DNA of 64,000 bases, from assembly GCF_055900595.2 (NCBI RefSeq), contig NZ_CM148325.1, one strand, 5' to 3'. The stretch's first letter is position 1. Every line of letters starts with the position of its first letter. Shown here piece by piece: positions 3,802-35,294 of this stretch. A program made the position numbers and the translations under genes. Under the pieces are notes generated by a model, which had not been told where the DNA came from, made no database searches, and saw nothing but the letters and a program-made list of their open reading frames with translations.

Positions 3802-5154
<1,353 letters not shown>

Positions 5155-5179: not shown

Positions 5180-5220
5180 AAACAAACTATTTTTCATTTA
5201 AAAACAATGGAGTTTGTTTT
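5180..5220 (+). terminator. Possible terminator of the immunity transcript
   Basis: Inverted repeat AAACAAACT...AGTTTGTTT followed by T-rich sequence; large loop, weak. Confidence 0.3.
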
Positions 5221-5240
5221 TCACGCCCCTTTTTACAATA

Positions 5241-5283
5241 TTTCTTGTTTACAACATACAATCTTTCTTGTAATTTTAAGCCA
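5241..5283 (+). promoter_or_regulatory. pL-like promoter with left operators
   Basis: TTTACA, 17 bp, TAATTT upstream of a lambda-pL-like transcript start; two TTTCTTGT operator repeats overlap. Confidence 0.5.
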
Positions 5284-5315
5284 TCAGCAGGACGCACTGA
5301 CCACCATGAAGGTGA

Positions 5316-5346
5316 GGCTCTTAAAAATTAAGCCCTGAAGAAGGGC
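5316..5346 (+). promoter_or_regulatory. nutL (boxA + boxB)
   Basis: GGCTCTTAA then GCCCTGAAGAAGGGC, as in lambda nutL. Confidence 0.8.
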
Positions 5347-5544
5347 AGCATTCAAAGCAGAAGGCTTTGGGATTGGATGAATGAGCAGGCTGATGCTCGA
5401 CCAATGTATAAACAGCGCTCATGGCAAGCAGTAACCAATCTGCGCCTCAAGACAGCGTCACTGGTAGTGCGGGCGCTCTAACCAGTAAGCCGGGGTTCAG
5501 CGCCGGCCATCCAATCACCAAAGCTAACTGACAGGAGAATCCAG

Positions 5545-5877
5545 ATGGATGCACAAACACGCCGCCGCGAACGTCGCGCAGAGAAACAGGCTCAATGGAA
5601 AGCAGCAAATCCCCTGTTGGTTGGGGTAAGCGCAAAACCAGTTAACCGCCCTATTCTCTCGCTGAATCGCAAACCGAAATCACGAGTAGAAAGCGCACTG
5701 AATCCGATAGACCTTACGGTGCTGGCTGAATACTACGAACAGATTGAAAGCAACCTGCAACGTATTGAGCGCAAGAATCAGCGCACATGGTACAGCAAGC
5801 CACGGAGTGAAATGGGTGTGACATGCTCAGGCCGCCAGAAGCAACGCGGAAAATCAATTCCGGCTTATTACGATTGA
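5545..5877 (+). CDS. N: Antiterminator N
   Basis: MDAQTRRRERRAEKQAQWKAANPLL..., Arg-rich motif, near-identical to lambda N over most of its length. Confidence 0.92.
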   Translation: MDAQTRRRERRAEKQAQWKAANPLLVGVSAKPVNRPILSLNRKPKSRVESALNPIDLTVLAEYYEQIESNLQRIERKNQRTWYSKPRSEMGVTCSGRQKQRGKSIPAYYD

Positions 5878-5885
5878 GGTGAGAT

Positions 5886-6137
5886 ATGGAATTTCATGAA
5901 AGTGCGATTTGTGATTTTCGCGCTAACGCAAATTCAGTAAAACCACAGCCAATTGCAGTTCTTTTTAAAACAATGGGAGCGTGGGCTGTTTTATGCTTCG
6001 CCTCTGACGACACTGATGCAAGAATGGCAATAGGCCAAGAGATGGAGATGGACCCGACAAACGATGAATTCATAATTTATGGCGCTCCATCTAATTACTT
6101 ACTTGATACCTGCAACATTTACAACAAGGCTGCCTGA
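5886..6137 (+). CDS. Hypothetical protein (83 aa)
   Basis: ORF with GAGGTGAG SD immediately after N. Confidence 0.5.
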   Translation: MEFHESAICDFRANANSVKPQPIAVLFKTMGAWAVLCFASDDTDARMAIGQEMEMDPTNDEFIIYGAPSNYLLDTCNIYNKAA

Positions 6138-6196
6138 TGGTGGCCTTTATTTTTTTGCCGTAAATAATTTCATGATTATTACAATCAAGGTGATAT

Positions 6197-6385
6197 ATGA
6201 AACGTAAATTTGAAATTTGGTTGGATTCCGGAGCAAACATTCACTCTTGCAAAAAGACAGTTGTAACACTCGATGATCTTGGCTTATCCGAGAATGAGTG
6301 GAATGAAATGGATCAGGACGAAAAAGACGAAAACATGCGTGATGTAGCATTTGAAACGCTTGATTGGGGATGGAAGGAAATTTAA
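6197..6385 (+). CDS. Hypothetical small acidic protein (62 aa)
   Basis: ORF with AGGTGA SD; Asp/Glu-rich C-terminal half; followed by a terminator hairpin. Confidence 0.55.
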   Translation: MKRKFEIWLDSGANIHSCKKTVVTLDDLGLSENEWNEMDQDEKDENMRDVAFETLDWGWKEI

Positions 6386-6390
6386 GTGAT

Positions 6391-6416
6391 GGCCGCATAG
6401 TCGGCCTTTATTTTTG
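6391..6416 (+). terminator. Rho-independent terminator
   Basis: GGCCG-CATA-GTCGGCC hairpin followed by T-run. Confidence 0.45.
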
Positions 6417-6624
6417 GCATAAACAACAGAATAAACACAGCACTGTGTATTCATTCCAACGAGTGAATACACGGAGCAATGTCGCTCGTAACTAAACAGG
6501 AGCCGACTTGTTCTGATTATTGGAAATCTTCTTTGCCCTCCGATGTGAGGGCTTTTTTATATGCATACCAATAACGCTTCACTCGAGGCGTTTTCGTTAT
6601 GCAATCAAACAGAAGGAGCATCCT

Positions 6625-6795
6625 ATGCAACAGTTCGCTATTGCAGGGGCGGCATCGGTTCGCCCTTTCAACCCGATTTTATCGGTACAGCATTCACGAA
6701 AAAATATTTTAACCGGAGCAGACTTTAAACAACCAAGAATGAAAAGTTTGCTCGAAAAGCTTTGGGATATTTTGAAACAACAAGGCCGTCCATGA
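6625..6795 (+). CDS. cIII: CIII-like protein (FtsH inhibitor family)
   Basis: MQQFAIAGA... and SLLEKLWDILKQ resemble lambda CIII; AAGGAG SD. Confidence 0.6.
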   Translation: MQQFAIAGAASVRPFNPILSVQHSRKNILTGADFKQPRMKSLLEKLWDILKQQGRP

Positions 6796-6950
6796 GTTTT
6801 ACGGATAACTGGTCAGACGAAGAATTCATTCGTCAGATGAAAGAATTAATCGGTAACGAAGGAGATATTCATGTCACTTGCAACCACAGTGAAGGAGAGC
6901 AAGTTACAGAGACGCATGTACACGCAGAAAGCTCTCTGGTATCGCCATAA
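6792..6950 (+). CDS. Hypothetical small protein (52 aa)
   Basis: ATG overlaps cIII-like stop (ATGA). Confidence 0.4.
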   Translation: MSFTDNWSDEEFIRQMKELIGNEGDIHVTCNHSEGEQVTETHVHAESSLVSP

Positions 6951-7049
6951 TGGCGACCGCGAAGGAATGCGGGTATGCCTTAATTTGTCCCGAGTCGAAG
7001 TATTAAATCAGCGTTATTTCCTTGGGCCATGTCCATTCTGAGGTGATTT

Positions 7050-7757
7050 ATGGATTTGAATAAATTCGATGAGCCATTCAGCCCTGAAGATATCGAATGG
7101 CGAATACAGCAAAGCGGTAAAACACGCGATGGCAAAGTGTGGGCTATGGTGCTGGCTTATGTCACGAACCGGGCAATCATGAAACGCCTGGACGATGTTT
7201 GCGGCAAAGCAGGATGGCGCAATGAATACCGCGATATTCCCAACAACGGCGGAGTTGAATGCGGCATATCAATCAAGATTGATTCCGAATGGGTAACCAA
7301 ATGGGATGCCGCTGAAAACACGCAGGTAGAAGCCGTCAAAGGTGGTCGTTCCGGTGCAATGAAGCGCGCTGCCGTTCAGTGGGGAATCGGTCGGTATCTG
7401 TATAACCTTGAGGAAGGTTTTGCACAAACATCTCTCGATAAAAAGCAGGGATGGCACAGGGCAAAACTCAAGGATGGAACAGGATTTTACTGGCTCCCTC
7501 CATCGCTGCCGGGATGGGCAATCCCAGCATCAGATAACAAACCATCACCAGAAAATACCAACCAGAAATCTCCATCGGTTGACTGCGAACAAATCCTGAA
7601 AGACTTCAGCGATTATGCGTCAACAGAAACTGACAAGAAAAAACTCATCGAGCGTTATCAGCGTGACTGGCAATTAATGGCTGGCAACGAGGAGGCGCAG
7701 GCTAAATGCGTTCAGGTAATGAACATCAGAGTTAACGAACTAAAACAGGCGGCATAA
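7050..7757 (+). CDS. Single-strand annealing protein (Rad52/Sak-like)
   Basis: Motif KGGRSGAMKRAAVQWGIGRYLY typical of Rad52-type annealases; sits where lambda bet would be. Confidence 0.7.
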   Translation: MDLNKFDEPFSPEDIEWRIQQSGKTRDGKVWAMVLAYVTNRAIMKRLDDVCGKAGWRNEYRDIPNNGGVECGISIKIDSEWVTKWDAAENTQVEAVKGGRSGAMKRAAVQWGIGRYLYNLEEGFAQTSLDKKQGWHRAKLKDGTGFYWLPPSLPGWAIPASDNKPSPENTNQKSPSVDCEQILKDFSDYASTETDKKKLIERYQRDWQLMAGNEEAQAKCVQVMNIRVNELKQAA

Positions 7758-8225
7758 ATGTCTCACTTGGACGGAATTATTAAAAGATTCGAGTCCAGCT
7801 ACAAAGTTAATGAAACAACAGGTTGCTGGGAGTCTACCTATTCAAAAAACAAAGGAGGATACACAAAATTTGTAGCCTTTGGCGTAACAATGCTTTCTCA
7901 TCGGGTTGCTTTTGAGCTTTATCACTCCCCCATTCCATCTGGGAAGATGGTTTGCCACAAATGCGATAACCCATGCTGCGTTAATCCTGAACATCTCTTT
8001 TTAGGTAGCGCGCAAGAAAACATGGACGACAAGATAGCAAAAGGAAGGCATCGTGGAGCCAAGAAAGGTCATGCTCATCATGGTGCAAAATTAACAGAGT
8101 GGCAGGTTATAGAAATTAGGAAAAGACTCTCTGAAAAAGAGAGTCAGTACAAGATAGCAAAAGACATGGGTGTATCTCAATCAATTATAAGCAACATAAA
8201 AACTGGCAAGAGGTGGAGCAAATGA
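7758..8225 (+). CDS. HNH endonuclease with C-terminal HTH
   Basis: HRVAFELYH...[23 protein letters not shown] motif. Confidence 0.8.
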
Positions 8226-8728
8226 GTTCTCGCGGGATAAATAAGGTGATTATTCTTGGTCGGGTAGGACAAGACCCGGAAGTTCGATACTCACCATCAG
8301 GAACAGCGTTCGCTAACCTGACAATAGCCACGTCAGAACAATGGCGAGATAAAAATACTGGCGAGCAAAAGGAATTGACTGAATGGCATCGTGTTGCTGT
8401 ATCCGGGAAACTGGCTGAGGTCGTGGGGCAGTATGTGAAAAAAGGTGATCAGATTTATTTCGAGGGAATGCTGAGAACCAGAAAGTGGAAAGACCAGTCA
8501 GGGCAAGACCGTTACACAACCGAGGTTCATGTCGGAATTAATGGTGTGATGCAAATGCTTGGCGGCATTGGCGACAGCAAACAACAAGCATCCAGCAGGC
8601 AATCACAGAAGCCACAGCAGCAATCATCACCAGCACAACACAACGAACCTCCGATGGATTTTGACGACGATATACCCTTTGCACCAGTAACTCTCCCCTT
8701 CCCTCGTCACGCTATTCACGCAATTTAA
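8222..8728 (+). CDS. ssb: Single-stranded DNA-binding protein (phage SSB) with C-terminal extension
   Basis: OB-fold N-terminus, Gln/Pro-rich linker, DDDIPF motif followed by 15 extra residues. Confidence 0.9.
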
Positions 8729-34241: not shown

Positions 34242-35294
34242 TTACCCGCGACGCGCTTTTACTGCATTCGCCAGTTGACGTAACAGGGCATCGGTATCTT
34301 CCCAGCCAATGCAGGCATCGGTGATGCTCTTGCCATAGGCCAGCGGTTCCCCACTCTCGAGGCTCTGATTGCCTTCCACCAGATGGCTTTCCACCATCAC
34401 GCCAATAATGGCCTTTTCGCCACCGGCAATCTGCTGGCAAACGTCAGCACAAACATCCATCTGCTTTTTGAATTGTTTCGACGAGTTAGCATGGCTGAAA
34501 TCGATCATCACCTGTGCTGGCAGGCCTGCTTTGTTCAGCCCTTCTTTCACTTCAGCAACGTGCTTCGCGCTGTAGTTAGGCTCTTTACCGCCGCGCAGAA
34601 TGATATGGCAATCGCCGTTACCGCTGGTGTTCACGATCGCCGAATGCCCCCATTTCGTTACGGACAGGAAGCAGTGCGGCGCACCGGCGGCATTAATAGC
34701 ATCGATAGCCACTTTAATCGTACCGTCGGTGCCATTTTTGAAGCCGACCGGACAAGAAAGCCCAGACGCAAGTTCGCGGTGCACCTGCGATTCCGTTGTA
34801 CGTGCGCCAATTGCTCCCCAGCTCATCAGGTCCGCGAGATATTGCGGGGTGATCATATCCAGGAATTCACCCGCTGCTGGCAGACCGCTGTCGTTAATAT
34901 CGAGCAGTAATTTACGGGCAATACGCAGACCGTCGTTGATCTGGAAGCTGTTATCCATATGCGGATCGTTAATCAGCCCTTTCCAGCCCACTGTGGTACG
35001 CGGCTTTTCAAAGTAGACGCGCATTACGATTTCCAGCTCATCTTTCAGCTCTTCACGCAGCGCCAGCAAGCGAGTGGCATACTCTTTAGCCGCGACGGGA
35101 TCATGAATAGAACACGGACCAATCACCACCAACAGGCGATCATCATTACCTTTCAGGATCTTATGGATCGCTTTTCGGGCATGGGCGACCGTATTCGCGG
35201 CATTTTCAGTAGCAGGGAATTTTTCCAGCAATGCGACAGGAGGAAGTAACTCTTTGATTTCTTTGATGCGTAAATCGTCGTTCTGATAATTCAT
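34242..35294 (-). CDS. aroG: DAHP synthase, Phe-sensitive
   Basis: 350 aa, MNYQNDDLRIKEIKELLPP... Confidence 0.93.
   Translation of the reverse strand: MNYQNDDLRIKEIKELLPPVALLEKFPATENAANTVAHARKAIHKILKGNDDRLLVVIGPCSIHDPVAAKEYATRLLALREELKDELEIVMRVYFEKPRTTVGWKGLINDPHMDNSFQINDGLRIARKLLLDINDSGLPAAGEFLDMITPQYLADLMSWGAIGARTTESQVHRELASGLSCPVGFKNGTDGTIKVAIDAINAAGAPHCFLSVTKWGHSAIVNTSGNGDCHIILRGGKEPNYSAKHVAEVKEGLNKAGLPAQVMIDFSHANSSKQFKKQMDVCADVCQQIAGGEKAIIGVMVESHLVEGNQSLESGEPLAYGKSITDACIGWEDTDALLRQLANAVKARRG

Follow-up and report, generated by a model that had tools for sequence, protein, structure and literature searches.

What role do two small open reading frames (ORFs) play that stand directly past the antiterminator gene N in a lambdoid prophage of Escherichia coli? 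The early-left (pL) operon of lambdoid phages carries ral, kil, cIII and recombination genes, and most of its remaining genes are without known function (PMC8022706). The two ORFs, named here ORF83 and ORF62 after the length of their products, belong to a 64,000-nucleotide stretch of contig NZ_CM148325.1 (RefSeq assembly GCF_055900595.2), hereafter the window. Over the region tested the window is 100% identical to the chromosome of E. coli EC332 (NZ_AP039429.1), in which the prophage adjoins ybhC. An initial annotation, made from the letters alone, had placed both ORFs between N and a cIII-like gene and had proposed the second as a DNA mimic directed against host defense; both ORFs are found where it put them (Table 1). 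We favor, with a probability of roughly 0.45 and thus just short of even odds, an account in which ORF83 and ORF62 form separate cassettes of the pL operon, each exchanged horizontally, whose soluble, acidic products act early by binding a factor of the host or of a competitor.

Both ORFs are real genes, being under strong purifying selection (ratio of nonsynonymous to synonymous substitution rates, dN/dS, about 0.07-0.2) and recognized in RefSeq, Pfam or PHROG. In pairwise comparisons with homologs spanning 48-99% identity, ORF83 has a dN/dS of 0.065-0.10 and ORF62 one of 0.08-0.23; the distant pairs are nearly saturated at synonymous sites. ORF83 gives a full-length match to phrog_2471 (residues 1-83 of 83, E=2.9e-61) and belongs to no family in a Pfam search. 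ORF62 matches Pfam DUF7167 (PF23768) at 34.7 bits against a gathering threshold of 24.4, with residues 3-62 on profile positions 1-58 of 60, and phrog_8831 at E=1.3e-32. The description of the two proteins as unrecognized therefore holds for their function, neither family having an assigned one, and not for their identity. Likewise, singling out one of them as strongly acidic was right for ORF62 (26% Asp plus Glu, net charge -8, isoelectric point (pI) 4.4) and understated the case for ORF83, which is also acidic (net charge -7, pI 4.2). The good Shine-Dalgarno sequences ascribed to the two ORFs are present, both of the form AGGTGA(T/G)ATATG, and ORF83 starts 8 nucleotides past N.

We aligned the window with the corresponding loci of lambda, HK544, mEp234 and HK633 and with a DUF7167-bearing E. 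coli contig. Right after N, orf28-ral of HK544, ORF83 of mEp234 and DUF7167 of loci L220-L226 all start at TTGAGGTGA(T/G)ATATGGAA, a junction that comprises the ribosome-binding site (RBS) and ATGGAA. At the other end of this first slot, ral of lambda and HK544 and ORF83 finish on AAC AA(G/A) GCT GCC TGA (Asn-Lys-Ala-Ala-stop). These shared codons form the 5' arm and loop of one and the same intrinsic terminator, T1, which is followed in each case by the same block of about 160 bp known from lambda. The loop of T1, TGAT, contains the stop codon of ORF83; the terminator is the one found after ral in lambda and HK544 and is annotated as rho-independent in mEp234. ORF83 replaces the whole orf28-ral module of lambda and HK544, as a cassette with exactly the same boundaries. 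The small orf28 itself (28 amino acids; HK544 L024:1377-1463; positions 34271-34357 of the lambda record), which precedes and overlaps ral, is extremely acidic (MEEEFEEFEEHPQDVMEQYQDYPYDYDY). Its first codons, ATGGAA, are common to the ORF83, DUF7167 and phrog_3054 cassettes, which places the recombination junction within the beginning of the coding sequence.

The second slot is nested within the first. A 261-bp segment consisting of its own Shine-Dalgarno sequence, ORF62 and a hairpin is inserted in the T-run of the slot-1 terminator, with repeats of GGCCTTTATTTTT at its ends. The hairpin and T-run that close this segment (T1') are the terminator which the initial annotation had noted after the second ORF; it overlooked that ORF83 also ends at one. 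Identical flanks enclose a protein with two transmembrane (TM) segments, phrog_3054, in HK633 (L002:2214-2579) and in 30 IMG/VR contigs (L025-L054), where the same 5' flank precedes the membrane-protein cassette and the 3' flank of T1' follows it. The phrog_3054 protein occurs in forms of 121, 140 and 149 amino acids with conserved termini and a hypervariable middle, a pattern that points to diversifying selection on a protein of exclusion or immunity. DUF7167 normally occupies slot 1 in other phages; in the prophage of the window it is found in the second slot instead.

Slot occupancy was counted at 80 IMG/VR loci with ORF83, 80 IMG/VR loci with Ral and 20 loci with DUF7167. None of the ORF83 loci holds Ral or DUF7167 and none of the Ral loci holds ORF83 or DUF7167, with the phrog_3054 cassette present at 10 loci of each set; at the DUF7167 loci Ral, ORF83 and the phrog_3054 cassette are all absent. 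Ral, ORF83 and DUF7167 are mutually exclusive in the sampled loci. The sole exception to this exclusivity is EC332 itself, the only one of 5,426 complete E. coli genomes in which ORF83 and DUF7167 stand in tandem; separately counted, ORF83 is present in 402 of these genomes and the E. coli subtype of DUF7167 in 30. The arrangement is ordinary lambdoid mosaicism with two cargo genes.

The locus resembles the accessory regions set out by Silas et al., in that its small genes vary between conserved flanks and share their location with the known counter-defense gene ral (bioRxiv 10.1101/2023.04.06.535777; PMC12373910), and goes beyond that definition in resolving two nested slots with junctions at the base pair. 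With these junctions, further candidates can be collected as any cargo that has RBS-ATGGAA on one side and the AAGGCTGCCTGA terminator on the other, or that is enclosed by the duplicated GGCCTTTATTTTT repeats. Of the genes found in slot 1 only ral has been characterized, and Ral alleviates type I restriction; this supports, by position only, an early role directed at the host or its defenses. The positional argument for anti-restriction made in the initial annotation is strengthened here, as the slot is shared with ral and DUF7167 elsewhere starts at the same junction.

The two cassettes are independent of one another. In prophages of Enterobacter, Ewingella and E. coli, DUF7167 follows N either directly or with one gene in between, as does a homolog of 48% identity, and the intervening gene varies from case to case, which argues that ORF83 and ORF62 are not a functional pair. 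The N-termini of the two proteins (encoded at 5886-5945 and 6197-6256) have in common an in-register motif (D10, A13, N14, S17 and K19), of which D10, N14 and S17 rank among the best-conserved positions of both families. Homology between ORF83 and ORF62 was not accepted (hhalign probability 2.3%, pairwise E=0.02), and the motif may be due to chance.

Because the scan found no intrinsic terminator from nutL to T1, N and ORF83 would lie on a first, N-independent pL transcript that ends at T1. ORF62, which is beyond T1, would require N-mediated read-through. Both products would appear as soon as lytic growth begins, when they would most likely serve as stoichiometric binders that neutralize a factor of the host or of a resident element, in counter-defense or host interference and not in core functions of the phage.

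The same layout could be read as making ORF83 a regulatory partner of N, acting in antitermination, in N stability or in the use of nut sites. The first intrinsic terminator is past ORF83 and not past N, and with a gap of 8 nucleotides and a Shine-Dalgarno sequence over the N stop codon, co-transcription and translational coupling are likely. ORF83 sits constantly after N in the loci of phages and prophages that were inspected (mEp234, VT2-Sakai, Citrobacter), the exception being L012, in which N was not recognized. We nevertheless judge a partnership with N to be highly improbable. At least three unrelated types of N precede ORF83 in mEp234, VT2-Sakai and Citrobacter prophages, and 98-99% identical copies follow N proteins as different as the lambda-like, HK97-like and Sakai-like ones. 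Moreover, Ral and DUF7167 can stand in for ORF83, and ORF83 is missing from most lambdoid phages, as its count among the complete genomes indicates. Its family is narrow: every relative has at least 69% identity and comes from a prophage of Enterobacteriaceae (E. coli, Enterobacter, Citrobacter and Klebsiella). Members of phrog_2471 include orf20 of VT2-Sakai, gp34 of mEp234 and proteins of many Shiga toxin (Stx) phages, with the Stx-phage and mEp234 copies 98-99% identical to ORF83.

Expression from the repressed prophage would be expected if the cassettes were morons that benefit the lysogen, by superinfection exclusion or by anti-phage defense. Consistent with this, each cassette ends in its own terminator, and slot 2 usually holds a polymorphic two-TM protein resembling an exclusion factor. 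In Aeromonas phage AsC4_1 (L006:4001-4189) a lone DUF7167 gene lies on the opposite strand between tail genes, which is the classic layout of a moron and is unlike the early-operon placement of DUF7167 elsewhere. Against it, in lambdoid prophages both genes share the strand of pL, which is repressed and lies upstream of them, and neither has a convincing promoter to itself: one promoter-like site (9 of 12 positions matching) was found in the region and 3.4 were expected from shuffled sequences, which gives no sign that the genes are expressed independently in the lysogen. Neither ORF matches a defense family of PADLOC-DB at E<=1, both proteins are soluble and free of TM segments, and DUF7167 is present in virulent phages too. 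We regard a moron function as very unlikely.

Ral offers the closest positional comparison for ORF83, with which it has in common the slot, the 5' and 3' junctions, the terminator and the downstream block. Both are also small, soluble early genes of the pL operon with products of similar size. The resemblance does not extend to the proteins. Ral is rich in Cys and not acidic, BLASTP gave no alignment of ORF83 to HK544 Ral at E<=100, and neither ORF matches the Pfam model of Ral (PF11058). A homolog of ORF83 in mEp234 (AFM76313.1), one residue away from it, is among 200 accessory genes that were synthesized and screened as UDP0060/orf60 (Silas et al., Supplementary File 3, bioRxiv 10.1101/2023.04.06.535777). 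The same list includes the phrog_3054 protein (UDP0047/orf47) and HK544 Ral (UDP0087/orf87), and the authors call orf87 ral in their text (bioRxiv 10.1101/2023.04.06.535777). Another member of the set, orf57, probably also comes from the ral region, as it matches a 67-amino-acid ORF after DUF7167 in locus L220. As an alleviator of EcoKI, orf60 did not score where Ral did. This outcome counts mildly against ORF83 as a Ral-like EcoKI alleviator. About 20 E. coli hosts were challenged in the screen, mainly with T-phages and P1, and other targets of ORF83 thus remain compatible with its outcome; DUF7167 was outside the 200-gene set.

For ORF62, the initial annotation had proposed a DNA mimic of the type of Ocr (T7 gp0.3), Arn (T4) or ArdA, whose carboxylate surface would block type I restriction-modification, BREX or a similar system. 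One fact speaks for this proposal, namely that the acidity of ORF62 is shared by its family. DUF7167 is uniformly acidic, with a mean net charge of -9.4 over 118 members and acidic residues at fixed columns (26-27, 32-34, 40-42, 44-45, 49, 56 and 61). Like Ocr, Arn and ArdA, ORF62 is a small, strongly acidic, early phage protein, of comparable charge density as judged from composition alone. The occurrence of DUF7167 in the slot of ral in other phages is in keeping with such a role. Tandem-duplicated members of the family exist (P0080 and P0111), from which single-domain DUF7167 proteins may act as dimers, as many mimics do.

The pattern of conservation in DUF7167 is of another kind. The family motifs are a W-x-D/N-S-G-A-N-x-H-S loop, a central E-E-W and a C-terminal D-W-G-W/Y, all represented in ORF62 (W8, D10-S17, W35 and W57-G58-W59). 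Across an alignment of 118 sequences W8 is conserved in 72%, A13 in 85%, N14 in 88%, S17 in 85%, W35 in 91% and G58 in 86%. The best-conserved positions, W8, the D/N-S-G-A-N-x-H-S loop, W35 and G58, are aromatic residues and a loop and not a charge ladder as would fit Ocr, Arn or ArdA. We found no profile similarity of ORF62 to Ocr or Arn (hhalign probability 0.2% each). The structure prediction and comparison with known mimics that had been proposed as a check gave an AlphaFold2 model of pLDDT 63.9 (strand, loop, three helices, strand) with no match to the known mimics and, at this low confidence, no fold match in PDB or BFVD. We therefore hold a DNA-mimic function of ORF62 to be improbable. 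The D-S-G-A of the loop also recalls retropepsins; this candidate was rejected, as position 10 is Asp in 74% and Asn in 16% of members, the protein has about 62 residues against a fold of about 90-100, and no peptidase family of Pfam matches at E<=1.

Other searches were equally sparing. NCBIfam and PDB profile searches gave no informative match for either ORF, and for ORF62 a PDB sequence search gave none below E=0.04, a weak resemblance to a KRAB domain being below significance. Word-based and exhaustive protein searches returned relatives that are all unannotated, and within the library searched no paper was found that names DUF7167, the WP accessions or the phrog identifiers. An exhaustive profile search did establish the breadth of DUF7167, with 186 cluster representatives at E<=1e-3, nearly all of 55-75 amino acids. 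Phage records with the family include P22-like and lambda-like coliphages (IME10, mEp043), Salmonella phage UPF_BP1 and Aeromonas phage AsC4_1, and also Vibrio phages of 130-140 kb and Synechococcus phage S-CBWM1. In unrelated temperate phages DUF7167 is repeatedly found immediately before a recombination module (ERF/SSB, RecT, Rad52), and in virulent Vibrio and cyanophage genomes it is among small genes near those of nucleotide metabolism.

These neighborhoods bring forward the main rival to the account that we favor, in which the DNA mimic is a specific sub-case. According to this rival the two proteins modulate host physiology, like Kil, CIII or SPO1 Gp46, by binding a housekeeping protein, such as a protease, a nuclease or a protein of division or of the nucleoid, and thereby favoring lytic growth or shifting the choice between lysis and lysogeny. 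The operon is shared with kil, cIII and anti-RecBCD genes, DUF7167 lies upstream of recombination modules or beside nucleotide-metabolism genes according to phage lifestyle, and the ORF83 homolog showed no counter-defense phenotype in the published screen. A link to HU inhibitors (PF25723, SPO1 Gp46-like) was considered and rejected: ORF62 has no match at E<=1, and the tandem protein P0080 alone reaches 16.1 bits, below the cut-off of 27, in a compositionally biased helix. No constant neighbor or partner gene of DUF7167 was found in the neighborhoods of eight contigs and five phage records, and a patchy, ral-exclusive distribution is more typical of arms-race cargo. On balance we consider modulation of host physiology rather unlikely.

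Several points weigh against early binders of a host or competitor factor as well. Position is circumstantial as evidence of function, the same operon also holding kil, cIII and exclusion genes. With pLDDT (predicted local distance difference test) values of 54.7 and 63.9, the structure models are too uncertain for a binding surface to be described. Nowhere in the preprint or the Nature Communications text is orf60 named as a hit, whether for alleviating EcoKI, for counter-defense or for cell death; the log of the MG1655/lambda screen reads "ardA, ral, ocr are hits", and the new counter-defense genes that were validated are orf48, 63, 92, 116, 126 and 148 (bioRxiv 10.1101/2023.04.06.535777; PMC12373910). 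Lastly, the DUF7167 copy of mEp043 (L225:4001-4185, also L226; P0013) is frameshifted near its 5' end, with a 58-amino-acid product in the databases. Since this phage is viable the gene must be dispensable, which in turn fits an accessory role.

Should either of the two proteins act in counter-defense, the few anti-restriction and anti-defense genes known from temperate coliphages would gain a further family. Among the carriers of ORF83 are the medically important Stx-converting phages (VT2-Sakai and the PA series), and DUF7167 reaches marine virulent phages. A bolder version, which we think improbable, would make DUF7167 a widespread and hitherto unassigned family of small acidic counter-defense proteins, possibly dimeric nucleic-acid mimics, in temperate lambdoid and in large virulent Vibrio and cyanobacterial phages. 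ORF83 would then be a second counter-defense gene replacing ral in Stx phages, directed against a defense absent from the screened hosts, and the N-terminal motif common to both proteins might reflect a common target.

Table 1. Features of the early-left region, in positions of the window.
Feature	Positions	Strand	Remarks
cI-like repressor	4121-4753		
ORF of about 134 amino acids	4750-5154		rexAB position between cI and pL; phrog_2651; similar to Sf6 gene 38; hydrophobic, signal-like N-terminus
nutL boxB hairpin, presumed, GCCCTGAAGAAGGGC	5332-5346	+	read in the sequence and also flagged by a hairpin scan; marks the pL transcript upstream of N
Antiterminator N, lambda type, 110 amino acids	5545-5877	+	Pfam N36, E=1.6e-26; phrog_271; N in RefSeq
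3' end of N	5800-5877		
Shine-Dalgarno of ORF83, GAGGTGAG	5876-5883	+	overlaps the N stop codon; part of the conserved slot-1 5' junction (T)TGAGGTGA(T/G)ATATGGAA
ORF83, 83 amino acids	5886-6137	+	acidic, cytoplasmic; phrog_2471; RefSeq WP_000394302; positional allele of orf28-ral
Intrinsic terminator T1	6126-6157	+	hairpin 6126-6147 and T7; 9-bp stem; -13.9 kcal/mol
Left copy of 13-bp direct repeat GGCCTTTATTTTT	6142-6154	+	bounds the 261-bp slot-2 insertion; seen on aligning mEp234, HK544 and lambda
Slot-2 conserved 5' flank	6158-6196	+	includes the Shine-Dalgarno of ORF62
Shine-Dalgarno of ORF62, AAGGTGA	6187-6193	+	
ORF62, 62 amino acids	6197-6385	+	acidic; DUF7167 (PF23768), phrog_8831; RefSeq WP_033802347, named DUF7167 family protein
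Terminator-like hairpin T1'	6391-6416	+	GGCCG-catagt-CGGCC and T-run; hairpin 6391-6406; closes the slot-2 cassette
Right copy of direct repeat GGCCTTTATTTTT	6403-6415	+	
Conserved non-coding block, about 160 bp	6403-6562	+	near-identical to the sequence just downstream of lambda ral
Hairpin within the block	6443-6474		perfect, 14 bp; -18.8 kcal/mol; z=-6.5; no T-run
Terminator within the block	6535-6552		followed by T-run
cIII-like ORF, 56 amino acids	6625-6795	+	downstream boundary; hypothetical protein in RefSeq; likeness to lambda CIII by eye
52-amino-acid ORF	6792-6950		net charge -9; phrog_2123
Rad52-family annealase	7050-7757		
HNH endonuclease	7758-8225		
SSB	8213-8728		

From left to right, the early-left operon reads cI-like repressor, signal-peptide ORF, nutL boxB, N, ORF83, ORF62, cIII-like ORF and recombination genes. 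The hairpin upstream of N we take to be the boxB of lambda nutL. The signal-peptide ORF next to the repressor gene is likely a moron expressed from the prophage. The C-terminus of N in the window (…VTCSGRQKQRGKSIPAYYD) is unlike the usual lambda-type ending (…VTCVGRQKIKLGSKPLI) of related loci, which places a mosaic junction within the last 15 or so codons of N, just upstream of slot 1.

Downstream of the slots, the non-coding block is nearly identical in all five aligned sequences, lambda, HK544, mEp234 and the P22-like prophage of the window included. It contains a strong hairpin and, after it, a separate terminator (Table 1); an Rfam scan of 5200-7100 gave nothing. A stretch so well conserved next to cargo of such variability may be a recombination linker or an RNA element. 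The cIII-like ORF that follows is without a match in Pfam or NCBIfam. Its stop codon is overlapped (ATGA) by the 52-amino-acid ORF, which matches a phrog labeled "recombinase"; the protein is far too small for this activity, and its label probably reflects an annotation artefact propagated through phage records. The recombination genes beyond the cIII-like ORF comprise a Rad52-family annealase, an HNH endonuclease, a single-stranded DNA-binding protein (SSB) and an anti-RecBCD gene. The HNH gene is wedged between those for the annealase and SSB, with start and stop codons abutting its neighbors, and looks like an insertion into the recombination module in the style of a homing endonuclease.

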